64,000 nt of DNA from sequence record PP763257.1; one strand, given 5' to 3'. Every line of letters starts with the position of its first letter. Positions within the stretch are counted from its first letter, which is position 1. Positions 29,947 through 63,199 of this stretch are shown piece after piece. Both the position numbers and the translations under genes were made by a program. The DNA is from Acinetobacter phage Ab5. Below the pieces are notes generated by a model that searched no databases, was not told where the DNA came from, and saw only the letters and a list, made by a program, of their open reading frames with translations.

Positions 29947-30692
29947 AGGGTGGTGATCTAATAAACACTATTCTTCCATCAAATAACTGTGGTGATTTTA
30001 TGATTTTAGAATATGAAAATTCTAGGAGAGTTAAAGTTAGATTTTTAAAAACAGGTTATGAGTGTGTCTCATCTTTACGAAATTTGAAATTAGGTCAAGT
30101 GAAAGATAGAATGTTACCTTCTGTTTTTGGGGTTGGATTTCTTGGTGATGCGCCAACTAAGATTGATTCTTTGATATTGAGGGAATATTCTATATGGGTT
30201 CAGATGCTTCGTAGATGTTATTCTTTGGTTGATAGATCAAAATACCCCTCTTATGAAAATTGTAGTGTATCTGATTATTTTTTGAATTATTCTAATTTTA
30301 GTAGCTGGTGTAATAAACAGATTGGTTTTGGTAATCAAGGTTGGCACTTAGATAAAGACTTGTTAGTAAAAGGTAATAAAGTTTATAGTGAAGAAACGTG
30401 TATTTTCTTACCCCAAGAGTTAAACTCTTTAGTGATAAGAAACAACTCTTGTCGTGGGAAGTATCCAATTGGTGTTAGTTTCAACAAAGACTCTTCAAAA
30501 TTTATGTCGCAGTTAAGTATGTCTTTTGAAACAAAATATATTGGTTATTACAACACACCTGAAGAAGCTTTCTATGCTTATAAAGAAGCTAAAGAAGCCT
30601 TTATTAAAGAACAGGCTAAGAAGTGGAAAGATAAGATTGACCCTAGAGCTTGCGAAGCTTTGATGAATTATGAGGTAGATATTAATGATTAG
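29943..30692 (+). CDS. HNH-AP2 type homing endonuclease (paralogue 1 of 3)
   Basis: C-terminal GYYNTPEEAFYAYKEAKEAF is an AP2-type DNA-binding domain. The central region is conserved with the ORFs at 44983 (+) and 51550 (-). Confidence 0.65.
   Translation: MKGGDLINTILPSNNCGDFMILEYENSRRVKVRFLKTGYECVSSLRNLKLGQVKDRMLPSVFGVGFLGDAPTKIDSLILREYSIWVQMLRRCYSLVDRSKYPSYENCSVSDYFLNYSNFSSWCNKQIGFGNQGWHLDKDLLVKGNKVYSEETCIFLPQELNSLVIRNNSCRGKYPIGVSFNKDSSKFMSQLSMSFETKYIGYYNTPEEAFYAYKEAKEAFIKEQAKKWKDKIDPRACEALMNYEVDIND
30541..30692 (+). repeat. dispersed DNA repeat copy A (3' end of HNH-AP2 gene)
   Basis: About 150 nt with high nucleotide identity to 45619-45771. Confidence 0.5.
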
Positions 30693-30706
30693 TGAGGATA
30701 AATAAC

Positions 30707-32217: not shown

Positions 32218-32287
32218 CCAAACAGTTTGAAATTTGAAAATATTGATTGACATACTTTTCGAAGTGTGTCATTATTTGTTTTGTAAA

Positions 32288-32364
32288 GGGCTGTTCGTCT
32301 AATTGGATAAGACATCATAATTCTAGTGTGATTGATGCAGGTTCGAATCCTGTGCAGCCTGCCA
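32288..32364 (+). tRNA. tRNA-Arg (anticodon UCU)
   Basis: Hand-folded cloverleaf. Acceptor stem GGGCTGT/GCAGCCT (two G-U pairs). D-arm GTCT-AATTGGATA-AGAC. Anticodon arm TCATA-ATTCTAG-TGTGA with U33 and A37. 5-nt variable loop. T-arm GCAGG-TTCGAAT-CCTGT. Encoded GCCA 3' end. Confidence 0.75.
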
Positions 32365-33490: not shown

Positions 33491-33750
33491 TGCTTTATTT
33501 TGTTATTACTTATCTTCTGGTTGGAATTGTATTAACTACTCTTTTATGTAAATTGGTTGATGATAATATTGATGAGTTTAAAGAATATGTGAATGATGAA
33601 GCAAGTTATAATTTTTATGTAAATCATAAATGGATTTGCTTCTCAATCTTAGTTTTCGCAACTCCTTTGTATTATACATATCAATTTGCAGTTTGGTTTA
33701 TTAAGTATTTAGTTGGTTTAACGTTGAAATTATTTGGTGGTAAGAAGTGA
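33490..33750 (+). CDS. small membrane protein
   Basis: 86 aa with two hydrophobic helices. Confidence 0.45.
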   Translation: MLYFVITYLLVGIVLTTLLCKLVDDNIDEFKEYVNDEASYNFYVNHKWICFSILVFATPLYYTYQFAVWFIKYLVGLTLKLFGGKK

Positions 33751-34772
33751 TTAAGAGTGATTTATTAATCGAGTCTTCAAGTTATGTGGACAAATATCCA
33801 CAGTTTGTTGAAGCAATCCGAAAACAAAAAGAAGATTTATTTTGGACAGAAAAAGAAATTGATCTGAATAAGGATAAACAGGATTTACGGCATCGTTTGT
33901 CTAAAGCCCAACGACATGCGATCTCTTTTAATCAAAAACTGTTTACAAAATATGAGAGTGTTATTGGACAGGATTATTGGATTGGGGTTGTGTCAAAACG
34001 ATACAAACGTCATGAAATTCAGCGAATGGCTGCTTGCTTTGCAGATGTTGAGATGAATATTCATTTTCCTTTTTATCGAAGAGTGAATGAAGTTCTTGGC
34101 GTACACAATGATGAATTCTACCAGCAATTTGAAACAGACCCTCTCTTGATTGAGCGTGTTAAATTCATGAATGACTTGGTGTCTAGTAAGGATACGTTAG
34201 TATCAATTGGCGGGTTTGCTTTTATGGAGGGGGCTGTGCTGTTCACAGCATTTGCGATGATTAAGTCGTTGAGTGTTCATGGTCAAAACTTCATGTCAAA
34301 TTTGGTGGCTGGGATTGAGATGTCTGTTTTAGACGAGAGTCATCATTTCGACATGGCAGCAGAAATATTCAAACTGCAAAAGAAACAAGAAAAACGATCT
34401 AAGGAAGAATTGAAAGAGCTAGAGTTAAAGATTAAAGATCATGCACGTAATGTGTATGAGCATGAGTGTCTTTTGATTAAAGCAATGCTTGCCGAAGGAG
34501 ACATCCCATTCGCAGGATATAAGGATTTAACTGGATTTGCTGCACACCGTTGTAATATGGTATTAAATGCATTAGGATACTCTTCTATATTTGATGAGTC
34601 TGATGACACGATTAGTTCTTGGTTCTACTCTTCAATGAACTCTTTTAAGTTTAACGACAACTTTTATACTCGTGGTCGAAACTATAAGAAAGAGTTTACT
34701 GAGAAGGATTTCGATATATTTAGTACAGGTGAGTTTAAAGAGGTTTTAAATAAGGTGGAAGGTGTTTATTAA
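33747..34772 (+). CDS. ribonucleotide reductase small (beta/R2) subunit
   Basis: 341 aa ferritin-like protein with paired E...H metal-ligand motifs (VEMNIH, EGAVLF, DESHHF). Immediately upstream of the large subunit. Confidence 0.7.
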   Translation: MIKSDLLIESSSYVDKYPQFVEAIRKQKEDLFWTEKEIDLNKDKQDLRHRLSKAQRHAISFNQKLFTKYESVIGQDYWIGVVSKRYKRHEIQRMAACFADVEMNIHFPFYRRVNEVLGVHNDEFYQQFETDPLLIERVKFMNDLVSSKDTLVSIGGFAFMEGAVLFTAFAMIKSLSVHGQNFMSNLVAGIEMSVLDESHHFDMAAEIFKLQKKQEKRSKEELKELELKIKDHARNVYEHECLLIKAMLAEGDIPFAGYKDLTGFAAHRCNMVLNALGYSSIFDESDDTISSWFYSSMNSFKFNDNFYTRGRNYKKEFTEKDFDIFSTGEFKEVLNKVEGVY

Positions 34773-36514
34773 TGACTAAGGTTCGTAATTTTAGTAAAGA
34801 GCGAAAACAGCTGCAAAAAGAGGGTTTATGTCCTAGTTGGATGACAACACAAGGTTATCAATTACTAGCAACTAAATATCTTAACGGTGAATCTAAATCA
34901 CCAAAAGACCAATATGAACGTATTGCAAAAACTCTAGCTAAACATGCACCAAAAGAATTTCCTGATTTTTGGAATGAGATTGATTATTGGAAAGATAAAA
35001 GTTGGGAGCAAGCTTTCTTTTCTATCTTATGGGATGGTTTATTAAGTCCATCAACACCAGTCCTAACAAACACAGGGACGGATTTCGGTTTGACTGTTTC
35101 TTGTAGTGGAGCTTATGTTGGTGACAGTGTTTATGACTTTTATGAGAGTCGAATGACCAATGCTTTGTTAAGTAAGGAAGGTTTTGGTACTTCGGCTTAT
35201 CTAGGTGATATTCGCCCACGAGGAAGTAAAATGAAAGGGGGTGAAGCTTCAGGAGCGCAACCTGTAGCAGAAATGTTTGTAGATGATTCTAAGAAGATTT
35301 CACAAGGGTCATCTAGACGGGGCGCTACTGCTTGGTATTATCCAATTGAAGGTGACGATTTTAACGAATTGGTACATTATTTAGAAACAGATACAGATGG
35401 TAATAATGCTGGTTGGTGTTTAACGGACAGCTTCTTTGAAAAGCTTAAATCTGGTGATAAAGAAGCTATTAAACGTTGGGGTAAAATGCTATCATGTAAG
35501 GGTAATGTTGGTAGTGGTTATCAGTTTTTTGTTGACAAGGTTAATCGACAAAGACCAGAAGCTTACGTGAAAAACAATCTTTTTGTAAAAGCGTCTCAAC
35601 TCTGTTCGGAGATAACTTTGTTCTCTGATGAAGATCATGTTTATACTTGTATTCTTAGTAGCGAGAACTTAAGAATGTGGTACAATCGTCCTAAAATGCT
35701 TGCTTTTGTTGCAACGGTGTTCTTAGATTGTGTTACAGAAGAGTTTATTCAAAAGGGTAAAAATATCGCTGGGATTGAAAAAGCGATTAGATATACGGAA
35801 AAAGCTCGTAGTCTTGGATTAGGTGCTATGGCATTTCATACCCTGTTGTTAGATAACAATATTGTTTATGGAAGTCTGGAAAGTCAGATATTAAATCATG
35901 AGATTTTCTCCACTATTCAAGGTGAAGCGAAACAAGCTTCGCAATGGTTGGCTACTATATTTGGTGAACCAGAATGGTGTGTTGGAACTGGTATGAGAAA
36001 TACACACTTAACAGCAATTGCTCCAACTAAAAGTACAGCCCTGATTCTAGGAGGTGTGTCTGAAGGAATTAACCCTCAAGTTGGTTTTGTTTTCACTCAG
36101 TCAACCCCTGCTGGGGAAGTTTTTCGTATTGATCCATCATTCTTAAACTTATTGAAGACGAAGGGTCTATACGTGTCTGAGGATGACAGAGATACCTTGA
36201 AGCTTTTGGGTGATATCAACAATCACAAAGGAAGTATTCAACACCGACCAGAGTTTTCTCAAGAGGAAAAAGCTGTATTCAGAACAGCTTTTGAGATTAA
36301 TCCTTATGATCACATTGATTTGGTTGATTACAGACAACAGTTTGTTTGTCAGTCACAAAGTTGTAATCTTTTTGTGACAAACATGTCTGGTAAGGAGGTT
36401 AGTAAATTGTATTTCTATGCTTATGCTAAACCTAATATTGCTTCTTTGTATTACCACACAGGAATGCGAGACTCTAATATTAAAACGAACTTTGAATGTT
36501 CTAGTTGTGAATAA
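34772..36514 (+). CDS. ribonucleotide reductase large (alpha/R1) subunit, no ATP-cone
   Basis: LCSEITL matches the NxCxE active-site loop. C-terminal CxxC pair (ECSSCE). 580 aa, with no N-terminal ATP-cone sequence apparent. Confidence 0.8.
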   Translation: MTKVRNFSKERKQLQKEGLCPSWMTTQGYQLLATKYLNGESKSPKDQYERIAKTLAKHAPKEFPDFWNEIDYWKDKSWEQAFFSILWDGLLSPSTPVLTNTGTDFGLTVSCSGAYVGDSVYDFYESRMTNALLSKEGFGTSAYLGDIRPRGSKMKGGEASGAQPVAEMFVDDSKKISQGSSRRGATAWYYPIEGDDFNELVHYLETDTDGNNAGWCLTDSFFEKLKSGDKEAIKRWGKMLSCKGNVGSGYQFFVDKVNRQRPEAYVKNNLFVKASQLCSEITLFSDEDHVYTCILSSENLRMWYNRPKMLAFVATVFLDCVTEEFIQKGKNIAGIEKAIRYTEKARSLGLGAMAFHTLLLDNNIVYGSLESQILNHEIFSTIQGEAKQASQWLATIFGEPEWCVGTGMRNTHLTAIAPTKSTALILGGVSEGINPQVGFVFTQSTPAGEVFRIDPSFLNLLKTKGLYVSEDDRDTLKLLGDINNHKGSIQHRPEFSQEEKAVFRTAFEINPYDHIDLVDYRQQFVCQSQSCNLFVTNMSGKEVSKLYFYAYAKPNIASLYYHTGMRDSNIKTNFECSSCE

Positions 36515-36578
36515 CAGTGTAGAGTTGTAATGTCTAACGAGGGTGTTGTCCAACACCTTCTCTGATTGGAGTTTAAAA

Positions 36579-36809
36579 ATGTTTAAGATATATGGTCGTA
36601 ATGGTTGTAGCTCGTGTGTTCAAGCTAAAGCTCTATTAGAATCTAAAGGGATTCCCTTAGAGTACCTCTCAATAGGTAAGGACTATGACTTGCAAAAGTT
36701 CATGTCGTTCAATCCAAGTCACAAAACATTTCCGCTAATTACACGGGTTGTTGAAGGTGTTGAGAAATATGTTGGTGGTCTTACTGAATTAAAAGAAATT
36801 CTAAAATAA
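36579..36809 (+). CDS. NrdH/glutaredoxin-like redoxin
   Basis: MFKIYGRNGCSSCVQAKALL contains a CxxC thioredoxin-fold motif. Start at ATG 36579 (GGAG 8 nt upstream), not the track start at 36543. Confidence 0.65.
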   Translation: MFKIYGRNGCSSCVQAKALLESKGIPLEYLSIGKDYDLQKFMSFNPSHKTFPLITRVVEGVEKYVGGLTELKEILK

Positions 36810-36813
36810 TTTT

Positions 36814-36863
36814 AACGGAATGTTGACTTAACTGTTGACATTCCGTTTTTTATTGTCTAAAAT
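36814..36863 (+). promoter_or_regulatory. conserved terminator/promoter cassette (copy A)
   Basis: Inverted repeat AACGGAATG ... CATTCCGTT encloses ATGTTGACTTAACTGTTGACAT, is followed by a T-run, and TAAAAT lies 17 nt after the second TTGACA. Near-identical core to 44385-44431. Confidence 0.5.
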
Positions 36864-37070
36864 TCAATTATCAAAACCATGCGTATTAAGGAATGTTTTA
36901 GATGTTATCATTTTATATTGTTATATCAACTTTGCTATTAGGATTTACTGGAGCTTCATGGAGTCAGGTTGGTTATTTAAATGTGTTAATTAAATTAACT
37001 TTATTGTTGACATGTTTTATTGGAATGTGTATTATGCTTCATAACTTTAATTTATCTTGGAAAGTTTAAG

Positions 37071-39801: not shown

Positions 39802-40626
39802 ATGTCTTACGCAGATAAAGTTTATCGTGACTTGGTTTATGAAATTCATAATAACGGCGATTGGGATTTTGGAGAAGATGTACGAGCTAAATACAAAGAT
39901 GGTGATTTAGCTTATGCTAAAAGTATTTTTGGTTATCAGGTAAAGTTTCCTAAAGGTGTTGTTCCTTTAATCAGCACAAAGAAGATATTTACACAAACAG
40001 CAATCAAAGAAATGATTTTGTTTTGGGTTAAACAAACTGTTAAGAAGGATGATTTCGATAAATGGAACGTCAAGATTTGGAATAGTTGGTTTAAAGCAGA
40101 TGGTACGTTGGGTTTATCTTATGCTGCTCAGTTTCAAAAAGGTGGTCGTAACCAAGTTGTTGAGTTAATCAATGGAATTAAAAATACACCTAAATCAAGA
40201 CGATTGATGACCTCTTTTTGGGACTTTGAGAATGCGCCTAATAAAGCATTACAAGAGTGTGCTTGGGCTACACAATGGGATGTTCGTAATGGTGATTTAA
40301 GTCTTATATTAATTCAACGTAGTGTAGATACAGCATGTGGTTTACCTTTCAATTGGTTTCAGTATTATGTATTGCAGTGTTTAATTGCCCATGTGTGTAA
40401 TTTAGAAGTTGGTACGTTTACACATCAAATGGGCAACGCGCATTACTACGACCGACACGAGGGATTACTGTTAGAACAAGTGAATCAAGATGTGTATGAG
40501 AATAAAGATGTTAAAGTGTTAATTAAAGAAACTTTAACTGACTTCTTTAAGGCTGACTTATCAGATATTGATTTAGTTGGTTATAAGTGTTCTAATAAGA
40601 ACTTCAAATACGAGATAGCTATTTAG
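39802..40626 (+). CDS. thyA: thymidylate synthase family protein (ThyA; a dNMP hydroxymethylase cannot be excluded)
   Basis: 274 aa. LIAHVCNLEVGTFTHQMGNAHYY matches the ThyA C-terminal signature (LIAHMLA...GDF.H..GD.H.Y). LQECAW is at the catalytic Cys position. Confidence 0.75.
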   Translation: MSYADKVYRDLVYEIHNNGDWDFGEDVRAKYKDGDLAYAKSIFGYQVKFPKGVVPLISTKKIFTQTAIKEMILFWVKQTVKKDDFDKWNVKIWNSWFKADGTLGLSYAAQFQKGGRNQVVELINGIKNTPKSRRLMTSFWDFENAPNKALQECAWATQWDVRNGDLSLILIQRSVDTACGLPFNWFQYYVLQCLIAHVCNLEVGTFTHQMGNAHYYDRHEGLLLEQVNQDVYENKDVKVLIKETLTDFFKADLSDIDLVGYKCSNKNFKYEIAI

Positions 40627-40634
40627 GGGTTTAT

Positions 40635-41150
40635 ATGTATAAAGACAAGAAAATTATTCAAATTGTTGCTAGAGGTTTGAAAGGTGAAATCGGTAAAGAC
40701 AACAAACTCCTGTGGAGTATTCCTGAAGAATTGAAATACTTCCGTGATCAAACATTGGGGCATGTTGTGATGATGGGTCGTAAAACATATGAGAGTTTAC
40801 CTAAACCTTTAGGTCGCAGGGTTGTGTATAGTGTATCAAGACCTAAAGATGTGGATGATTATGACTTGCTAGACTACTTCCACGATGCTTATAAAACCAC
40901 TACTACGATGCTTAATACAGATTGTATTTTTGTTGCGGGAGGTAGTCAACTGTATGAAGCTACATCAGATATTGTAGATGAACTTCTTATTACGGAAGTT
41001 GACAAGGAGTATCATGATGCTGATGTATATTTTAAGCAACCCGATGGTTTTGAGATGACTGATAGATCAGAATGGACTGAAGGTATTGACCGTTTAAGTG
41101 GTGATATTATACGTTATCGCTTCACAACATGGCATCGTTTACCATTTTAA
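40635..41150 (+). CDS. folA: dihydrofolate reductase
   Basis: IQIVARGLKGEIGKDNKLLWSIPEELKYFRDQTLGHVVMMGRKTYESLP matches the DHFR N-terminal signature. Confidence 0.8.
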   Translation: MYKDKKIIQIVARGLKGEIGKDNKLLWSIPEELKYFRDQTLGHVVMMGRKTYESLPKPLGRRVVYSVSRPKDVDDYDLLDYFHDAYKTTTTMLNTDCIFVAGGSQLYEATSDIVDELLITEVDKEYHDADVYFKQPDGFEMTDRSEWTEGIDRLSGDIIRYRFTTWHRLPF

Positions 41151-41537: not shown

Positions 41538-41566
41538 TTGACAACTAGATTTAAATCAATTACTAT
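41538..41566 (+). promoter_or_regulatory. putative promoter overlapping a terminator
   Basis: TTGACA at 41538-41543, 17 nt, then TACTAT. Confidence 0.4.
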
Positions 41567-41567
41567 A

Positions 41568-41598
41568 AAGACACACCAGAAATGGTGTGTCTTTTTTA
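41568..41598 (+). terminator. rho-independent terminator
   Basis: AAGACACACCagaaaTGGTGTGTCTT followed by TTTTT. Confidence 0.65.
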
Positions 41599-42637: not shown

Positions 42638-42834
42638 TGCATGAACTATTTGAAAATAATAAGCTAGAAGGAACAACAGCTTTTGTTAATCAAGTATTAG
42701 TAACTGTTAACTATGGACACTACATGTTAGAAACAGGGTTAATTAAAGAGCTATATGAAGCTCATGGAGAACGTTGGTATTATGTTGTTCCAATTAACAT
42801 GTGGTTTCGTGAGGATACTTTGGATGAATGTTAA
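42637..42834 (+). CDS. hypothetical protein
   Basis: 65 aa. Confidence 0.45.
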   Translation: MHELFENNKLEGTTAFVNQVLVTVNYGHYMLETGLIKELYEAHGERWYYVVPINMWFREDTLDEC

Positions 42835-42903
42835 ATTAATTGTTGACATTAGTTTTAGTATAGATTGATATTTATGTATCAACCAACATGTAAGGTGAAT
42901 ATC

Positions 42904-43185
42904 ATGAAAACAAATGAATTAAAATCTGCAATATTATCAACACATGCTAGATTGTTTAAGGTTGTATTTAGAAAATCAGATGGTACAATTCGTACTTTGT
43001 ATGGTAAGATTGGTGTTGAACGTTTTAAATCTAAGAAGCCAAACAAACGTAAAGTTAATGAGCATGGCGATAACTTAATTCGTGTGTTTGATGTTGAGAA
43101 GAAAGAGTATCGAGCATTCAACTTATCAAGTGTTATTGAATTCTCATGTGGTAATAAACAATTTAAATTAGAGAGTGTAGAATAA
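42904..43185 (+). CDS. hypothetical basic protein
   Basis: Start at ATG 42904 (AAGGTG RBS). The track start at 42865 overlaps a promoter-like TTGACA region. Confidence 0.45.
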   Translation: MKTNELKSAILSTHARLFKVVFRKSDGTIRTLYGKIGVERFKSKKPNKRKVNEHGDNLIRVFDVEKKEYRAFNLSSVIEFSCGNKQFKLESVE

Positions 43186-43607
43186 TGGAATTAGCATTAT
43201 TAATTTGGTTTGCAAGTGTGTCAACTGGTATTGCTAAGTTATTTGGAGCATTGTCTTTTGTGACGTTTGTTACGGTAGCATTTGTTCTTGGGGTTAGTTT
43301 GATGCATTCATTTATTGAAGAGGAAAAATTAAAAATATTTGAATACAAGAAATCAATTATTGGTGTATTTATATTCTCAATTCTATCTGCTTTGATTTCT
43401 GTGGTAATTCCAGATGAGCGAACAGTTTATTTAATGGCTTCTGGATATGCTGGACAGAAAATTGTAGAGTCAGATAAGTTTCAGAAGAGTACGAACGATG
43501 TTTATGAAATTGTTAACATGAAACTTGAACAAATTAAACGTGACATGCACAAAGAACTTGAGCAATCTCAAGATAATGATCAGAAAGCAGAAGGAGAAAC
43601 AAAATGA
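43185..43607 (+). CDS. membrane protein (about three TM helices) with C-terminal coiled coil
   Basis: 140 aa. The N-terminal half is hydrophobic. Confidence 0.5.
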   Translation: MELALLIWFASVSTGIAKLFGALSFVTFVTVAFVLGVSLMHSFIEEEKLKIFEYKKSIIGVFIFSILSALISVVIPDERTVYLMASGYAGQKIVESDKFQKSTNDVYEIVNMKLEQIKRDMHKELEQSQDNDQKAEGETK

Positions 43608-44005
43608 GTGAACAAGGTGCATACGTATACGAACAACTAATTGGTAAAACATTTGATAAGGTTTACCAAAGTGGTGATGTAATTTGTTTTGAAAAAGATG
43701 GAGAAGTTTTATATAAACTAGCTCATAGTCAAGATTGTTGTGAACATGTTTATATTGAAAGTATTGTTGGCGATCTTAATGACTTAACAGGACAACCTTT
43801 ATACATTGCTGAAGTAGTTTATCAAGAAATAAATGACAAAAATGATGAAGGGTATGTGGAATTTGAATCTGCTACATGGTCATTCTTTAAGTTTGCAACA
43901 ATTAAAGGTTATGTAGATATTCGTTTTCATGGTTCTAGTAACGGATATTATTCAGAGAGTGCTGAACTATTTGATAAAGATTATTGGGGTTTTAATCATG
44001 TTTAA
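43604..44005 (+). CDS. hypothetical protein
   Basis: 133 aa. Confidence 0.5.
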   Translation: MSEQGAYVYEQLIGKTFDKVYQSGDVICFEKDGEVLYKLAHSQDCCEHVYIESIVGDLNDLTGQPLYIAEVVYQEINDKNDEGYVEFESATWSFFKFATIKGYVDIRFHGSSNGYYSESAELFDKDYWGFNHV

Positions 44006-44366
44006 ATCTTTTGTTGTTGCAGCACTTGTTTTATTGTGTTCTGCTTGTTCATTGAAACCAAGTGTAGTCTTAACTAAACGCATTGAGCTTTCTAATGGTA
44101 TGTATTATTCATATACATGTAAAGAAAATGGTCAATATTCGTGTAATGCGGATGATTTTGTAGCTGAACGATCTATTGGCGAAGACACTCAATACTTCTG
44201 TGATCTTGGTGGAGATTTCTATATTATTAAATCTCGATATAAAGGAGGTAGTTCTGCAATTCTTCAGGAGGGTCTTAGTTGTGAATTTACTGTAGAAAGA
44301 ACTAAGAAGATTGTAATGGCAGATGGAAAAGAAAAGATTGAAACAGAAACTCTTTCTTACCAATAA
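43998..44366 (+). CDS. putative secreted lipoprotein
   Basis: From ATG 43998: MFKSFVVAALVLLCSACSLKPS is a signal peptide with a lipobox-like LLCSAC. The mature part is Cys-containing and hydrophilic. Confidence 0.45.
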   Translation: MFKSFVVAALVLLCSACSLKPSVVLTKRIELSNGMYYSYTCKENGQYSCNADDFVAERSIGEDTQYFCDLGGDFYIIKSRYKGGSSAILQEGLSCEFTVERTKKIVMADGKEKIETETLSYQ

Positions 44367-44384
44367 AATATAAATTGATTTTAA

Positions 44385-44431
44385 AGAGATGTTGACTTAA
44401 TGGTTGACATCTCTTTTTATTTGTCTATAAT
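44385..44431 (+). promoter_or_regulatory. conserved terminator/promoter cassette (copy B)
   Basis: AGAGATG ... CATCTCT inverted repeat encloses ATGTTGACTTAATGGTTGACAT, followed by a T-run. TATAAT lies 16 nt after the second TTGACA. Confidence 0.5.
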
Positions 44432-44462
44432 AAAAGCATAGGCAAATATCTTGGAGATTAAT

Positions 44463-44759
44463 ATGGAACATATCAAATTAAACAAACTTGGTAGTAACTC
44501 AGAAGAGATTGAGTTTGATTGTAACTTTAATGGTGTCTATTACTTAATTATTGTCGATGTTGAATACTGGACAATTAAACAAGATAGCTATGGTGTACAA
44601 GATAGCTCTTGGATTGAAGTAGATGCTGACAGTTTTGAAATTTCTATATCAATATACGATGAGGAAGAAAACAAGATACCTTCTACCTACTTAGCTAAAT
44701 CTGAGGTTGAATTTATTGAACAAGAATGTATTAACTACTTAAATGATGAGTATGTGTAA
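44463..44759 (+). CDS. hypothetical acidic protein
   Basis: ATG at 44463, 7 nt after GGAG. The track start at 44451 is TTG. Confidence 0.5.
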   Translation: MEHIKLNKLGSNSEEIEFDCNFNGVYYLIIVDVEYWTIKQDSYGVQDSSWIEVDADSFEISISIYDEEENKIPSTYLAKSEVEFIEQECINYLNDEYV

Positions 44760-44986
44760 TGATTAATAAAAAACAATTAATACATGATTGGTCATTACTG
44801 AGGGTAGGTGATGTGTTTAAATCCTACCATTCAGGAAGTACATATATTGTCACTGATGTCACTGAACATTATGTACAATTTAAGTATGTGAGTAATCCGA
44901 TTAAATATTTATTTGTTATATCATTGGAAATTGAGGTGTTTGATGGTTTTAAATTTGAAAAATTAAATAAGGAGGATTTTAATTGA
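44759..44986 (+). CDS. hypothetical protein
   Basis: 75 aa. Confidence 0.45.
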   Translation: MINKKQLIHDWSLLRVGDVFKSYHSGSTYIVTDVTEHYVQFKYVSNPIKYLFVISLEIEVFDGFKFEKLNKEDFN

Positions 44987-45771
44987 AATATGTTAATAAC
45001 ATAGACCATAAAGATTGTGTTGGAAAATTATGTAAATCTAAAAATTCTGGTGATTTTATTATTACTAAGTATCATGACCATAAACATGTTGAGGTTGAAT
45101 TTTTATTGAGTGGTTATGAAACTGTGAAACAATTAACTCACATTAAAAATGGTGAAGTAAGAGACCCTTATTGTCCTTCTGTTTATGGGGTGGGTATAAC
45201 AGGAGACAAATTTCCAATACATGAAAAGATTAACGCTAAGGAAAGGGTATTTACTCTACAATACAATACATGGCATTCTATGCTAGCTAGATGTTATAGC
45301 GACAAGTTTTTACTAAATAATCCAACATATACAGGTTGCTCTGTATCTGAAAACTTCAAACACTACGAATACTTTTATGAATGGTGTAACGAACAAGTAG
45401 GTTTTAAAAATGAAGGTTGGAATTTAGATAAAGACCTTTTAATTAAAGGTAATAAAATATACTCTGAAGATACTTGTGTTTTCTTACCAAGAGAATTAAA
45501 TCTGTTGTTAATAAACAATGGTGTATCAAGGGGAGACCTCCCAATAGGTGTTAGTTATCATGTTAGAAATAAAAAGTTTCAAGCAAACATTAACTTAAAC
45601 ACAGGTCGCACAAAAAGCTTAGGTTACTACAACACACCTGAAGAAGCTTTCTATACTTACAAAGAAGCTAAAGAAGATTTTATTAAAGAACAAGCTAATA
45701 AATGGAAAGATCAAATTGATCCTAGAGCTTTTGAAGCTTTGATGAATTATGAGGTAGATATTAATGATTGA
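44983..45771 (+). CDS. HNH-AP2 type homing endonuclease (paralogue 2 of 3)
   Basis: Collinear similarity with the 29943 ORF throughout. C-terminal GYYNTPEEAFYTYKEAKEDFIKEQ AP2-like domain. Confidence 0.65.
   Translation: MKYVNNIDHKDCVGKLCKSKNSGDFIITKYHDHKHVEVEFLLSGYETVKQLTHIKNGEVRDPYCPSVYGVGITGDKFPIHEKINAKERVFTLQYNTWHSMLARCYSDKFLLNNPTYTGCSVSENFKHYEYFYEWCNEQVGFKNEGWNLDKDLLIKGNKIYSEDTCVFLPRELNLLLINNGVSRGDLPIGVSYHVRNKKFQANINLNTGRTKSLGYYNTPEEAFYTYKEAKEDFIKEQANKWKDQIDPRAFEALMNYEVDIND
45619..45771 (+). repeat. dispersed DNA repeat copy B (3' end of HNH-AP2 gene)
   Basis: About 150 nt with high nucleotide identity to 30541-30692. Confidence 0.5.
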
Positions 45772-46051: not shown

Positions 46052-46054
46052 ATA

Positions 46055-46080
46055 AAAACCCGCTTAGCGCGGGTTTCTTT
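46055..46080. terminator. bidirectional rho-independent terminator at the convergent strand switch
   Basis: AAACCCGCttagcGCGGGTTT with A-run upstream and T-run downstream. Lies between the last + strand gene and the first - strand gene. Confidence 0.7.
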
Positions 46081-48047: not shown

Positions 48048-48147
48048 GGTAATGACTCCTGTGTTTGTATGATTAAATAGTATCAGGTTTTAAAATCATA
48101 GTCAACAAAAAAAGAGAACAACTTTCGTCATTCTCTTCCTTATTTAA

Positions 48148-53307: not shown

Positions 53308-53472
53308 AATTTTCTCCAATAAAAAGATGACTATCTCGTTATGGATAATCATCTCAAAATTAAAACTAGATGTCAACTAATTTCTTTAACTTTTCAAAAA
53401 CTAATTGGTACATATCATTCACTTGATACTGTTTAGGTTCATTATATGAACTATGCTTAATTGGATGACATG

Positions 53473-55584: not shown

Positions 55585-55707
55585 CTAGAGCATATCTAAA
55601 CATTCTTGTTGATATTCTTCAGTTGCAGCAGAATAGTCAAAACCATTACTCTTAATTCCACCAAGAAACCAAAGATTGATCTTATCTAAGATAGAATATT
55701 GTTTCAT
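55585..55707 (-). CDS. hypothetical small protein (40 aa)
   Basis: MKQYSILDKINLWFLGGIKSNGFDYSAATEEYQQECLDML with a GAGGTG RBS 5 nt upstream. Not in the ORF track. Confidence 0.35.
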   Translation of the reverse strand: MKQYSILDKINLWFLGGIKSNGFDYSAATEEYQQECLDML

Positions 55708-55754
55708 TTTTTCACCTCAACTATTTTATAGATACAATAAATTATAGATATAAT

Positions 55755-55788
55755 AAAACAGACCTAACATTTCTGTCAAGTCTGTTTT
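55755..55788 (-). terminator. hairpin terminator with a TTGACA-containing loop (cassette-like)
   Basis: On the - strand: AAACAGACttgacagaaatgttagGTCTGTTTT followed by TATTAT. Resembles the + strand cassettes at 36814 and 44385. Confidence 0.45.
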
Positions 55789-55806
55789 GATGATTATTTT
55801 AGAAGA

Positions 55807-58188: not shown

Positions 58189-59487
58189 TTAAATGTTTTC
58201 TTCTTGTAGCCAACCTAAGAACAAGTCCTTCATTCTTTTAGACAAGATAGCAAGATTGATCGGTTTTCCATCTCGTATTGCAGACCTCCAAATAAATTGA
58301 AGCATTTCAGATAAAGCAAACACATCAGCATTTATTGGATATCCATAGTCTTGTAAATAACTAGCAACACTTTGATTCGGATATCGGTCATAAGCATGAA
58401 TAACACAAGTTTTATGTCTATAAGCATTCGTTGCTCTTGTGTTTGATGCCAACCAACAAACATTCTCAGGACACTTTTGTATCTTTAACTCTGTATCTAC
58501 TAAACCGCTAGGTTTAATCTTAGCTGCTTTCGACTTAACATCCAGATTACTTCTATTCTTTGGGAATGTATAAAGCAAATCATAACTAGAAGCTCTCCAC
58601 GAACGAGCAATTGACAGAATGTACCCTTCAATATGTTTAATATCTTGTGTAGACATTTTTGAATATGCAGACACAGATAACTTTAAGTCTTTCTTCCACT
58701 TTTGATTAGTTGGTGAATAAAGATTGATTAATTTAGCTATCTCTTTCTTGCTTGGTACAATTGGTGTAATCTCATCAAATGTTTTATACGGAATCCCCTT
58801 CAACTTTAGAAAACTACTAAGAATATTACCTTCAAACATGTATGTTAAGATAATAGCTCTCTTTGATGATGTAATCAATTTAACAGGAAGCTGTGTAACA
58901 AACATATCATCTTTACGCTTACTAACGTACAACATCTTGTTTTGAACATGTCTTTTAAACTTACTATATTTATGTCTAAAGTCGTCAAATGCTTTATCTA
59001 AGTTACTATCAATATCCTTACCACACCACGTCAACATTCCGTCATTTTCTTGTACACTAATCACACCCAATTCAATTAATGATGTAACATCTGGTGCTGA
59101 GTATGCATGATAATCATCAATCATTGCAATCTCTTCATCTACAACTAACACATAATTGTGTTTCTCCATTTCACTAAAATGCTCATCTGTCATGTTTAGG
59201 TATAGATTATGTGTACATGTAATATTAGCACCAATTCTCAATAATTCTAACAGGTGACTACCTTTTGTGTCATGATGGTTATCCTCATCATCTCTCTTGG
59301 TTTCTGGAGCTACAAATCTAGTTAGTGGACAAGCTTGCTGAATACGACCACCATCTTTAACTTCTTCTAGGAGTGGTGATATATAAAAGAATTTATATAT
59401 GTGATTATTCTCTTCCATCCATTTACAAATCTTAGACGTCTTATGTGACCCCATCATAGCATCTACAATCTCTACAAAATTACTCAT
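58189..59487 (-). CDS. atypical P-loop NTPase; first gene transcribed leftward from the iteron region
   Basis: 432 aa. Walker A-like MMGSHKTSK near the N-terminus and Walker B-like VLVVDEE. The GS(H/Y)KTS form is reminiscent of Zot/pI-type NTPases, but this is from memory and not verified. Confidence 0.5.
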   Translation of the reverse strand: MSNFVEIVDAMMGSHKTSKICKWMEENNHIYKFFYISPLLEEVKDGGRIQQACPLTRFVAPETKRDDEDNHHDTKGSHLLELLRIGANITCTHNLYLNMTDEHFSEMEKHNYVLVVDEEIAMIDDYHAYSAPDVTSLIELGVISVQENDGMLTWCGKDIDSNLDKAFDDFRHKYSKFKRHVQNKMLYVSKRKDDMFVTQLPVKLITSSKRAIILTYMFEGNILSSFLKLKGIPYKTFDEITPIVPSKKEIAKLINLYSPTNQKWKKDLKLSVSAYSKMSTQDIKHIEGYILSIARSWRASSYDLLYTFPKNRSNLDVKSKAAKIKPSGLVDTELKIQKCPENVCWLASNTRATNAYRHKTCVIHAYDRYPNQSVASYLQDYGYPINADVFALSEMLQFIWRSAIRDGKPINLAILSKRMKDLFLGWLQEENI

Positions 59488-59799
59488 CTATATTATTTAC
59501 CTCATATTATTAAAATGACAAACAATATAACACAATAGTATTTATAAAACAACCAATACAATATCAATTGATTAATAAATACACAATTTGTAACATTGGC
59601 GCAATATTCCTAAGGGGATAGGAGATTTCCAGTGTATTTTGTGGTCTTAGTTTTTGGGAAGGTTTACTATAAGGAAAAGGTGTGTAATCTATTGATTAAT
59701 AAGGAATAAAAAATGAGTTTGTAAGGTAATGCCTTACTGGGAATGTAAAACATACTAATTGTATACTTTATGTAACTTTAATATTAACACTAATAAAGA

Positions 59800-60400
59800 C
59801 GTAGTATTGACCTAGTATATGAACGTAGTGATATGACACTTTAAATCAAACACTTATATAAGGATAGTGTTATCTTAATAGCTAATAGTGAACATGTGTA
59901 CACTTAAAAGATAATAGTAAGTTATCAGTAGTGTATTAATAATACCACCAGTAAGGTGTATCAGTAGTGTACATCAGTAGTGCTCTATTAGTGTATCTAT
60001 AAGGGATAACACTAGTGTTATAGTATTATTGAGAACAACTTTAGATTATCTTTAGTGTTGTTGTAGTGTTGGTAAAATACTATCGTAGTGTTAGTAGAAG
60101 ATTACTGTAGTGTTATTGTAGTGTTAATCACCTTAGAAAAATAAATACAACTACTTTAGTGTAAAATAATTTAATAAAATTAAAATTAATTTAAATTATT
60201 TTTAATTAGTTACAATTACATAAAAATAAACTTAATTATTGACACCTTATTATTGACTTTACCCTACTTTAGTGTATATTAGTGTTGGTATTAGTGTTAG
60301 TACTAGTTGTAACACTAGTGTTATTGTAGTGATAGGCATGATCTAAGAGCTACAATTAAGCACAAACTATGTTGTTCTTCTTTGTTATTTAGTGTATTGT
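59800..60400. repeat. iteron array (about twenty copies of the TAGTGTT/TAGTGTA core, including two palindromes AACACTAGTGTT); putative replication origin / regulatory binding-site cluster
   Basis: Direct reading. GTAGTGTT, TTAGTGTT and CAGTAGTGT recur at irregular 9-40 nt spacing. Perfect 12-nt palindromes lie at 60008-60019 and 60311-60322 on either side of a >85% A+T block at 60161-60250. No ORF is present. Confidence 0.6.
60161..60250. promoter_or_regulatory. extremely AT-rich block (candidate DNA-unwinding element) flanked by iterons; tandem TTGACA/TTGACT at its right edge
   Basis: aataatttaataaaattaaaattaatttaaattatttttaattagttacaattacataaaaataaacttaattattgacaccttattattgact. Confidence 0.4.
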
Positions 60401-60595
60401 GTTATAATGAACGAAGTGATATGATGTTTGGTGTTGATGTGTTGTTGTTTGCTCCTGATCAAAGATCAGCTTGATACGAGCATTAGATCATTCTTTGTTG
60501 TGTTGTAGGATATTCCTAATGTTGAAAACAAAATGCCGTTGCTTTTGACCCATAGGGGTATCCTTAGTTAAATTGTTGCTTTACTGGAGTATTAT

Positions 60596-60805
60596 ATGTT
60601 GTTATTTAAGTTATTTATTATAGGATCATTAGTTTGTGTATTCTTAACCTTTTTCTTTATGGTGATTGGTGTTTGTTATGATTTTAACCAACCTAAGTGG
60701 ATTGAAAAGATTATAGATTATTTATCAATCTTTACATTATTTTTGTGTTTAGTGTGGTTGTTAATCATATTTGTTGGTTTAAGTATTTCAGTATTGACAG
60801 CTTAG
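60596..60805 (+). CDS. small hydrophobic membrane protein (69 aa)
   Basis: Two TM helices. GGAG 9 nt upstream. It is the only ORF in the 1.8 kb control region, and whether it codes is uncertain. Confidence 0.3.
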   Translation: MLLFKLFIIGSLVCVFLTFFFMVIGVCYDFNQPKWIEKIIDYLSIFTLFLCLVWLLIIFVGLSISVLTA

Positions 60806-62632: not shown

Positions 62633-62934
62633 AGATAACAAAAGATCATGCTTTATTCTATGCAAGTAAGAAAAGTAAAGTCTTTTCTTGTGATGTATCA
62701 ATTCATAGTTTGATTAATTCGCAAATAGAGTTATCTAAAAACTTTATTGATAAACATAATGACTTAACAATCATTAGATCATTATATCAACGTTGTATTC
62801 GTAATGATCTTAACTTATATGCAGAATTCAGAAGGTTACTTGAGTCGAGCACTACAATACGACCAAATAGGGCTAGAATGTGTAAAAACATTCTAAAGGG
62901 GTTAAGAAAGAATAAATATTTAAAAAGAATGTGA
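62629..62934 (+). CDS. hypothetical basic protein
   Basis: 101 aa. Confidence 0.5.
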   Translation: MKITKDHALFYASKKSKVFSCDVSIHSLINSQIELSKNFIDKHNDLTIIRSLYQRCIRNDLNLYAEFRRLLESSTTIRPNRARMCKNILKGLRKNKYLKRM

Positions 62935-62983
62935 GTGTAAAGCTTGCATTCTTTTTTGTTGTCTGTATAATGAAAAATATAAA

Positions 62984-63199
62984 ATGATAGATAGGAATAA
63001 TATCATGCATTTCCGTGAAGTTAACAACAAGCTTAAACAACTAAAGTCAGAAGTTATGTGGTGCAGTAAAGCTTTATCTTTCGCTAATGTGTCTAATGAA
63101 GTTTATCAAGCTAAAGTTCGAGCATTCTTTCAAGCTCAAAAAGAGTTAGAGCTATTTCGTAATACAACATTAAAGGAGCTATCATCATGTACAGTTTAG
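62984..63199 (+). CDS. hypothetical protein
   Basis: 71 aa. Confidence 0.45.
   Translation: MIDRNNIMHFREVNNKLKQLKSEVMWCSKALSFANVSNEVYQAKVRAFFQAQKELELFRNTTLKELSSCTV

Follow-up and report, generated by a model that had tools for sequence, protein, structure and literature searches.

Cassettes of Acinetobacter phage Ab5 that join a predicted one-directional terminator to a predicted sigma70-type promoter

Two intergenic sites in the genome of Acinetobacter phage Ab5 carry a cassette in which a putative intrinsic terminator, working in one direction, is fused to a putative sigma70-type promoter. With a probability of roughly 0.8, these cassettes serve as stop-and-restart signals of transcription. 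The reading is based on the anatomy of the sites, their predicted fold, the covariation of the paired positions and the conservation among related phages, from which we infer that transcription actually terminates and initiates there.

The window, which is the whole stretch of DNA that was analysed, covers 64,000 nt of phage Ab5 (PP763257.1) and has a G+C content of 29-37%. Over the aligned stretches it is 86-98% identical to the Acinetobacter baumannii myoviruses Ab3-TPeters, MD-2021a, phiAB441, vB_AbaM_B9 (here B9) and TaPaz, whose genomes of 88-96 kb belong to the unclassified Caudoviricetes and encode a primase/helicase together with a Pol I-type polymerase. The genes of the window are located on the plus strand until about 46.06 kb, where the order leads from the tail through replication and nucleotide metabolism to numerous small genes without known function. 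From about 46.06 to about 59.5 kb the genes are found on the minus strand, and from about 60.6 kb on the plus strand again. Site 1 follows the glutaredoxin gene (Pfam PF00462), the last of the ribonucleotide reductase (nrd) cluster, and site 2 follows a gene without a family match, in a block of small genes. The genes downstream of both sites are small and gave no family match, and no candidate regulator gene was identified adjoining either site. Promoters and terminators are not discussed in the literature on TaPaz and B9; the sole prior annotation is in the B9 GenBank record, where the site 1 orthologue is listed as a rho-independent terminator.

Anatomy and predicted fold of sites 1 and 2

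The two sites share a 22-nt core, ATGTTGACTTAAYKGTTGACAT, for which the search of the window returned exact matches at 36820-36841 and 44389-44410 and a copy with two mismatches at 42828-42849. The level expected by chance, obtained from shuffles, is 0.01 matches, and three or more matches occurred in 0 of 100 shuffles. The shared core, already reported in a preliminary description of this DNA, is thus exact at both positions. Both exact copies are intergenic, their hairpins lying 5 nt (site 1) and 17 nt (site 2) past a stop codon, and each core is followed by a T-run and then by TTGTCTA(A/T)AAT. The parts of the two sites, with the hairpins taken from a terminator scan, are the following:

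36807-36809, plus strand: stop codon of the glutaredoxin gene, upstream of site 1
36814-36847, plus strand: candidate terminator hairpin of site 1, 14 pairs and a 6-nt loop (5′ arm 36814-36827, AACGGAATGTTGAC; loop 36828-36833, TTAACT; 3′ arm 36834-36847, GTTGACATTCCGTT)
36835-36863, plus strand: predicted sigma70-type promoter of site 1, 11/12 consensus match (-35 TTGACA at 36835-36840, in the 3′ arm; 17-nt spacer; -10 TAAAAT at 36858-36863)
36846-36851, plus strand: T-tract of site 1, within the promoter spacer
36888-36893, plus strand: Shine-Dalgarno sequence AAGGAA, with the ATG at 36902 and the predicted transcription start near 36870
44364-44366, plus strand: stop codon upstream of site 2
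44383-44416, plus strand: candidate terminator hairpin of site 2, 15 pairs and a 4-nt loop (AAAGAGATGTTGAC(T) / loop TTAATG or TAAT / (G)GTTGACATCTCTTT)
44404-44431, plus strand: predicted sigma70-type promoter of site 2, 12/12 consensus match, the top of the window (-35 TTGACA at 44404-44409; 16-nt spacer; -10 TATAAT at 44426-44431)
44414-44418, plus strand: T-tract of site 2, within the promoter spacer
44453-44456, plus strand: Shine-Dalgarno sequence GGAG, with the ATG at 44463 and the predicted transcription start near 44437

The formation of the hairpin depends on wobble pairs. In RNA, the first GUUGAC of the core pairs with the second GUUGAC through G-C, U-A, U.G, G.U, A-U and C-G pairs, and once the G.U pairs are counted the stem is continuous across the core and reaches 14-15 bp, with 4-5 G-C pairs. 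The RNA folds predicted by ViennaRNA have a free energy of -19.7 kcal/mol (z = -7.0) at site 1 and -18.1 kcal/mol (z = -6.1) at site 2, and 0 of 200 shuffles fold as well. The U-tracts TTTTTTATT and TTTTTATTT adjoin the 3′ ends of the stems, as read in the sense direction of the upstream gene. The hairpin with its T-run looks like an intrinsic terminator, and the stem and T-run support the proposal of the preliminary description that it acts as one in RNA. On the antisense strand the wobbles are replaced by C.A mismatches, the folds amount to -14.4 kcal/mol (site 1) and -12.6 kcal/mol (site 2), and a U-tract is absent at both sites. Because the antisense fold is weaker and is not followed by a U-tract, the predicted terminator should be one-directional. 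The corresponding DNA hairpins are half as stable (-9.8 at site 1 and -8.7 at site 2).

These wobble pairs also change the picture given by the preliminary description. It had seen an inverted repeat, a T-run and a -10 box, all of which are present, but the stems of 9 and 7 bp around a loop of 16-20 nt which it described are in fact stems of 14-15 bp with loops of 4-6 nt. From the conservation of that supposed loop and the variation of the stems it had concluded that the loop itself is under selection, for example as the binding site of a regulator. This reading finds no support, since the G.U pairs had been missed: what was taken for a loop forms the inner part of the stem, half of its length, closed through tandem U.G/G.U pairs, and no segment varies more among the orthologues of six related phages than the true loop of 4-6 nt. 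It may be taken as a cautionary example, in which a "conserved loop" vanishes once G.U pairs are allowed.

The second TTGACA had been placed correctly at 16-17 nt from a -10 hexamer, as the two predicted promoters confirm with their 11/12 and 12/12 matches, and at both of them a Shine-Dalgarno sequence and an ATG follow 30-40 nt downstream. A second promoter starting from the 5′ TTGACT was considered and rejected, since TTTTTT, and nothing resembling a -10 box, stands at 16-18 nt downstream. The 5′ TTGACT seems to serve as the partner with which the -35 box pairs, and not as a second -35 box.

The order of events that would follow from this anatomy can be described as follows. The upstream transcript, which comes from the nrd/glutaredoxin operon at site 1 and from the small-gene block at site 2, would fold into the hairpin of 14-15 bp, and on the U-tract behind it the host RNA polymerase would terminate, at about 36848-36853 and 44417-44422. 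On the level of DNA, the 3′ arm would supply the -35 TTGACA and the T-tract most of the 16-17 nt spacer, with the -10 box next. The host sigma70 holoenzyme would then restart about 20 nt downstream of the prior transcript end, near 36870 and 44437, and transcribe the next small-gene cluster with a leader of about 25-30 nt. In the proposed mechanism the 5′ TTGAC has the role of pairing with the -35 box. As UUGA is self-complementary in RNA via tandem U.G/G.U pairs, a direct repeat of the box would make a hairpin that is strong in the sense transcript only.

Further modules and conservation among the relatives

Additional copies were sought with a covariance model, built from the site 1 and site 2 orthologues alone, and with a stem scan (at least 8 bp and a T-run) combined with promoter consensus scans. 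From the latter, four layouts were drawn. In layout A the -35 box lies in the 3′ arm of the hairpin, as at sites 1 and 2; in layout B it lies in the 5′ arm and the hairpin is inside the spacer; in layout C the hairpin comes after or over the -10 box; and in layout D the hairpin is followed by the -35 box. The candidate modules and their neighbours are these:

62922-62971, plus strand: third layout-A copy, from the stem scan and the covariance model (hairpin 62922-62956, AAAAAGAATGTGAG / TGTAA / CTTGCATTCTTTTT; predicted promoter with -35-like TTGCAT at 62944-62949 within the 3′ arm, a T-rich spacer of 16 nt whose last bases are TTGTCTG, -10 TATAAT at 62966-62971; ATG at 63005)
55750-55788, minus strand: layout-B module (TTGACA at 55779-55774 in the 5′ arm; 15-bp hairpin 55788-55755, which fills the 18-nt spacer; -10 TATTAT at 55755-55750; ATG at 55707)
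32247-32275, plus strand: layout-B module (TTGACA in the 5′ arm of a 10-bp hairpin, 32248-32271; 17-nt spacer; CATTAT)
32288-32364: tRNA-Arg gene downstream of the preceding module
41538-41594, plus strand: layout-C module (TTGACA at 41538-41543; 17-nt spacer; TACTAT at 41561-41566; 12-bp hairpin 41567-41594 with T-run)
53324-53376, minus strand: layout-C module (TTGACA at 53376-53371; 17-nt spacer; GATGAT; 12-bp hairpin 53355-53324, which overlaps the -10 box, then T-run)
around 46915-46850, minus strand: layout-C module, identified visually
48077-48141, minus strand: layout-D module (hairpin 48141-48108, T-run, then TTGACT, 17-nt spacer, TACTAT)
42843-42872, plus strand: promoter-only relative of the core (TTGACA at 42843-42848; 17/18-nt spacer; TGATAT/GATATT; ATG at 42904)

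The covariance model retrieves 62917-62984 with 37.2 bits (E about 0.001). This third copy has GAATGT...CATTC, the T-run and TTGTCT in common with sites 1 and 2, its RNA fold is -15.9 kcal/mol (z = -4.9), and it is conserved in MD-2021a and in Ab3-TPeters, where it lies in the terminal repeat; its -35 box, TTGCAT, matches only 3/6 of the consensus. Sites 1, 2 and 62922 can be read as paralogues of one element of about 60 nt. The preliminary description had overlooked this better third copy and had named a looser one at 55755-55788 on the minus strand. That hairpin exists, with a fold of -18.9 kcal/mol, but its layout is different, with the -35 box in the 5′ arm, and the model scores the region 55728-55797 weakly (25.7 bits, E about 0.3). 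Its stem is replaced in the Ab3-TPeters counterpart (AGAAGAGAGTTGACAATATGTTAGCTCTCTTTT) with the layout unchanged, and the TaPaz counterpart has TTGATA with the pairing retained. Another layout-B copy, elsewhere in Ab3-TPeters, is found by the model with 32.6 bits (E 0.012).

Among the other modules, 41538-41594 folds with -20.5 kcal/mol and has its own predicted start inside the 5′ arm of the hairpin, and the hairpin 48141-48108 (-17.3 kcal/mol) also contains tandem U.G/G.U pairs. The core copy with two mismatches at 42828 has a fold of only -9.5 kcal/mol (z = -1.95), no T-run and no convincing hairpin; its 5′ "box" is degenerate in the window and in the relatives, and the promoter at 42843 overlaps with the preceding gene at its stop codon. 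At least six further putative fusions of terminator and promoter, in other layouts than that of sites 1 and 2, punctuate the early and middle regions, and about nine modules of mixed layout are present per genome. The cassettes thus appear as part of a wider habit of the clade, in which terminators are fused to promoters in several layouts.

Consensus promoter scans are weak evidence in AT-rich DNA, and the total of promoter-like sites in the window is not above the shuffle expectation. Sites with at least 11/12 matches number only 8 on both strands of the 64 kb (128 kb of strand), and three of them are fused to hairpins. A promoter of at least 10/12 is carried by 6 of the 14 correctly oriented strong hairpins, where about 3.5% would be expected for each (rough binomial probability 5e-6). 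The pattern of hairpins and promoters is the same across the whole Ab3-TPeters genome. The TGTTGACAT context is also found at the hairpin-free promoters 24444, 37007, 42843 and 48909.

The occurrence of the motif in relatives, a check proposed along with the first description, came out positive, both sites being present in related phages. In the alignment of the hairpins 99% of the cells are paired, as against 32-58% in slid controls, for a small covariation sample of 7 distinct sequences. Three outer stem pairs differ between site 1 and site 2 by compensatory double changes (C-G/A-U, G-C/A-U and A-U/G-C). The loop variants are TTAACT, TTAATG and TTAGGT at site 1 and TTAATG, TTAGT and TTAAT at site 2, and a 1-nt indel in the loop brings the two GTTGAC copies from a spacing of 12 nt to one of 11 nt. 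In site 2 of B9, the 5′ TTGAC has become TTAAC, a change by which a G.U pair turns into A-U and the box is destroyed. An even larger change occurred in site 2 of Ab3-TPeters, where the whole hairpin is replaced by AAAGACTGTTGAGGAAAACCCTTGACAGTCTTT (-18.4 kcal/mol) in front of the same downstream gene. There TTGAGG stands in the 5′ arm and is paired to CCTTGA; the 3′ arm still holds TTGACA, and a T-rich spacer of 17 nt leads from it to TATATT. The hexamers and spacing of site 1 are invariant in 5 relatives, and the promoter of site 2 is kept in B9, TaPaz, MD-2021a and phiAB441 (with the -10 box TACAAT in phiAB441). Evolution has kept the base pairing, the TTGACA of the 3′ arm and the interval between it and a -10 box, and has let the 5′ "box", the loop and the spacing of the repeat vary.

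Alternative readings, recombination and distribution

The tandem GTTGAC-N6-GTTGAC could also be a paired operator of a DNA-binding regulator from phage or host, with the hairpin being secondary, as the preliminary description had considered for TTGACT/TTGACA. The identity of the 22-nt core at two sites and the retention of both GTTGAC copies in most orthologues would fit such an operator, and so would the 5′ arm, which always has TG, keeping the TTGA(C) box, and never the better-pairing CA. The distance between the copies is, however, 12 or 11 nt depending on the orthologue, the 5′ copy is altered in B9 with the pairing improved and in Ab3-TPeters with the pairing preserved, and all of the variation is compatible with base pairing. 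In addition, the promoter at 42828 retains the 3′ copy alone, and no candidate regulator adjoins the sites. This persistence of the pairing, with variation in the 5′ box, in the loop and in the distance between the repeats, disfavours both the paired operator, which is improbable, and the tandem -35 boxes. The terminator-promoter model gives no reason for a 5′ arm built with wobble instead of Watson-Crick pairs: in all modules of layouts A and B, the -35 box has its TG paired with TG in tandem U.G/G.U pairs. An explanation by selection against an antisense promoter was rejected, since with a Watson-Crick arm no more than 6 nt would separate the antisense TTGACA from the closest -10-like hexamer (checked by hand).

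It is quite improbable that the hairpins are terminators only, with the likeness to a promoter being a by-product of an AT-rich T-tract and an AT-rich leader. Promoter-like matches are indeed as frequent across the window as in shuffles, and the depositors of B9 annotated just a terminator. Yet TTGACA at 16-17 nt from TAAAAT or TATAAT is rare, given the 8 sites of this quality in 128 kb of strand, and the hexamer and its distance to the -10 box outlast the replacement of the hairpin in Ab3-TPeters at sites 2 and 3. The TGTTGACAT context marks hairpin-free promoters as well, and a strong terminator alone would leave the downstream clusters without a source of transcription. A role mainly in RNA processing or stability, in which the hairpin would be an RNase III site or would protect the 3′ end in place of terminating, has very little probability. 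Stems of 14-15 bp are in the size range of RNase III substrates, and the nearly perfect stems of the cassettes fall in it. However, the adjoining U-tract, the strand-specific G.U design and the position after the stop codon are hallmarks of an intrinsic terminator, and since stabilising the 3′ end is also an effect of terminator hairpins, such a role would be an added function and no replacement.

Besides the control of transcription, the cassettes might be portable recombination junctions similar to the PeSLs (promoter-early stem-loops) of T4-like phages, and exchange between the copies would then shuffle the small genes beside them and homogenise the cassettes; this is possible, though doubtful. 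The region of the cassettes is strongly mosaic among six relatives and rich in small genes of unknown function, and it holds three paralogous copies of about 60 nt. Across the phages, the site 2 cassette is adjoined by three different upstream genes, and in MD-2021a and Ab3-TPeters a different gene stands upstream of site 3, right at the module edge. Shortly upstream of the hairpins, at 36766 and 44362, there are breakpoints of similarity. Two variants of the loop, TTAATG and TTAG(G)T, are each found at both sites in different phages, which hints at gene conversion. On the other hand, most breakpoints are at ordinary gene junctions, an indel flanked by two cassettes was not found, the identical stretches are merely 8-14 nt long, and 3 copies per genome stand against dozens of PeSLs. 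Of the 141 breakpoints, 24 (17%) are no more than 60 nt away from one of the 12 modules considered, which is about the share of junctions with a module as estimated without a count. An enrichment of breakpoints at modules (nominal p 5e-5 against random positions) was discarded, the breakpoints being non-independent and the 17% close to that estimated share.

A wider proposal, in which the cassette of about 60 nt is a portable module of both regulation and recombination in a non-T4 lineage, built by duplication of the -35 box, whose UUGA core is self-pairing in RNA only, and with copies that exchange sequence, is rather unlikely. Under this proposal the terminator would be strand-specific, and any DNA cruciform would carry two mismatches. 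An exchange between copies would explain the loop variants shared by both sites, and the release of the polymerase inside the spacer of the next promoter might favour immediate re-initiation, which would couple the units.

The distribution of the terminator-promoter cassette was followed in larger collections. A scan of IMG/VR with TGTTGACNNNNNNGTTGACAT gave at least 120 matches, nearly all of which are coding (VD..VDM-type) or due to chance, and none has a stem, a T-run and a -10 box. This pattern was discarded as too loose, the number of matches being the chance expectation for 15 specified bases. With ATGTTGACTTANNNGTTGACAT, the same collection gave 4 matches and no cassette among them, and the clade is apparently absent from IMG/VR. 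The pattern GTTGACATN{3,4}TTTTTNNTTGTCTA gave 7 matches in 185,579 reference genomes and 19 in JGI metagenomes, scattered over unrelated taxa and with no Acinetobacter; on these grounds neither a host origin nor additional relatives are indicated. A match in Psittacicella was rejected as a cassette, as it is an ordinary promoter sharing TTTTTATTTGTCTATAAT, and it was judged to be convergence. The Rfam scan found only the tRNA and nothing at the cassettes. Because the core is absent from IMG/VR, the reference genomes and the JGI metagenomes, apart from chance or coding matches, the cassette seems to be private to a small phage clade.

For the therapeutic-candidate A. baumannii phages B9, TaPaz, Ab3-TPeters and phiAB441, the cassettes give the first hints towards a map of transcription units. 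They suggest that stop-and-restart cassettes of the PeSL type also occur outside the T4-like phages, and if both functions are confirmed, they would provide compact terminator-promoter parts (about 50 nt) for the engineering of Acinetobacter.

Comparison with known systems

The closest counterparts are the PeSLs of T4-like phages, which are repeated composites that combine a sigma70 promoter close to the consensus with the stem-loop of a terminator, the latter usually located between the -35 and -10 boxes or over the -10 box (PMC2839356, PMC4122927). PeSLs were shown to terminate transcription, to promote it and to recombine into mini-circles (PMC2839356, PMC4122927). The feature by which PeSLs are defined (PMC2839356) is found in the cassettes by the fold and the consensus scans. 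As in PeSLs (Arbiol et al. 2010; Comeau et al. 2014), a small intergenic near-consensus sigma70 promoter is combined with the stem-loop of a putative terminator, the unit is present in a few copies in the genome, and a Shine-Dalgarno sequence and a start codon stand at its end. The stems are likewise flanked by an A-run and a T-run (A3-4G3-loop-C3T3-4 in a PeSL example), and the units lie in variable regions full of unknown small genes. The modules of layouts B and C (55788, 32247, 41538 and 53376) match the commonest PeSL layouts.

The differences concern the phage, the copy number and the geometry. Ab5 is an unclassified Acinetobacter myovirus of about 92-96 kb and not a T4-like phage, and its genome has about 3 layout-A copies and about 9 modules, compared with dozens of PeSLs and well below the number in RB49/phi1. 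Unlike in the commonest PeSLs, the layout-A -35 box is inside the 3′ arm, the T-tract forms the spacer and the stem ends before it, and the arms pair via a wobble-based direct repeat of the -35 core. Recombination into mini-circles is established for PeSLs; for the cassettes, such an exchange is a possibility. In function the cassettes would resemble PeSLs or the terminator-promoter overlaps of bacteria, but strictly speaking they stand outside the PeSL family, given a phage that is not T4-like, a low copy number and the different geometry of layout A.

Overlaps of terminators and promoters between operons are documented in bacteria, e.g., at tufB-secE (2019, PMC6735719), where read-through can occlude the promoter (PMC6735719). 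In these overlaps, as in the cassettes, the upstream terminator and the next promoter have nucleotides in common and the units are concatenated (PMC6735719). The bacterial cases are single, ancient chromosomal junctions that were tested experimentally, and those of Ab5 are a repeated family of cassettes. Compared with a canonical intrinsic terminator and a canonical sigma70 promoter, every sequence hallmark of both is present. The cassettes differ from such a pair by the nucleotides that are shared, with the -35 box in the stem and the U-tract as spacer, and from a canonical terminator by the tandem G.U pairs at the centre of the stem, which make it strand-specific. The cassettes can thus be seen as a new twist on a known kind of element, namely a wobble-paired direct repeat of the -35 core.

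Gene replacements within the clade

Differences in gene content between the window and its clade relatives, the Acinetobacter baumannii phages Ab3-TPeters, MD-2021a, phiAB441, vB_AbaM_B9 (B9) and TaPaz, involve the following features:

33747-36809, ribonucleotide reductase module, with two gene arrangements across the clade
39802-41150, thymidylate synthase (~274 aa) and dihydrofolate reductase genes, also present in Ab3-TPeters
32288-32364, plus strand, tRNA-Arg with the anticodon TCT, directly 3′ of the terminator/promoter module at 32247-32275

The ribonucleotide reductase genes follow the order beta (341 aa) to alpha (580 aa) in the window, Ab3-TPeters and MD-2021a, and the order of a longer alpha to beta in B9, TaPaz and phiAB441. 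The module is swapped among the members of the clade. When the window is compared with B9, TaPaz and phiAB441, the nucleotide similarity returns within the 3′-terminal 45 nt of the glutaredoxin gene, at position 36766, 48 nt upstream of cassette 1, the predicted terminator fused to a sigma70-type promoter. At the locus corresponding to the thymidylate synthase gene, TaPaz, phiAB441 and MD-2021a carry a flavin-dependent, ThyX-type enzyme. The replacement is a non-orthologous one.

The module at 32247-32275, in which the -35 element lies within the 5′ arm of the hairpin and the hairpin is located in the spacer to the -10 element, is kept in phiAB441, MD-2021a and B9. From the 3′ edge of the module onward, these three phages have unrelated DNA instead of the tRNA-Arg and its adjoining sequence.

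Surroundings and loop variants of the cassettes

Two genes lie near cassette 2, which is nearly identical to cassette 1:

44006-44361, gene without a family match (~118-145 aa), also present in phiAB441
44983-45771, gene for an HNH homing endonuclease containing an AP2-like domain, just 3′ of cassette 2

The first gene is missing from TaPaz, MD-2021a and Ab3-TPeters, and B9 lacks ~1.17 kb corresponding to window positions 43194-44361. The indels of all four phages have a common right-hand edge, located ~20 nt 5′ of cassette 2. Paralogues of the HNH gene, visible as off-diagonal BLAST matches, occur at ~30236-30700 of the window and in the relatives; the copies are probably mobile.

Across the window and four related sequences, the hairpin loops TTAATG and TTAG(G)T are each found in both cassettes, but not in one and the same phage; for example, the cassette 1 loop of TaPaz is that of cassette 2 in the window. 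Because the same variants occupy both sites in different phages, an exchange between the cassettes, or else recurrent mutation, is suggested.

Other non-coding elements and a likeness outside the phages

Three further features were recorded:

46054-46078, GC-rich hairpin, T-runs present on both strands, at the exact convergence point of the plus and minus gene blocks
59480-60600, non-coding stretch of ~1.1 kb, at the junction where the minus and plus gene blocks diverge
Psittacicella melopsittaci NZ_NRJH01000053.1, 2340-2365, unrelated promoter-like site GTTGACATAGACTTTTTATTTGTCTATAAT in a bacterium

The hairpin, which is kept in the relatives, looks like a bidirectional terminator. The non-coding stretch contains iteron-like repeats, namely the palindrome TAACACTAGTGTTAT at 60006 and 60310 and TAGTGTTRTTGTAGTGTT, present 3-4 times. 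At 60155-60230 it also has palindromes that are long and AT-rich. The stretch is a candidate for an origin of replication or for an early control region.

The Psittacicella melopsittaci site matches cassette 2 from the T-tract to the -10 element inclusive, but lacks the upstream complementary arm. The likeness is judged to reflect convergence on a strong promoter.
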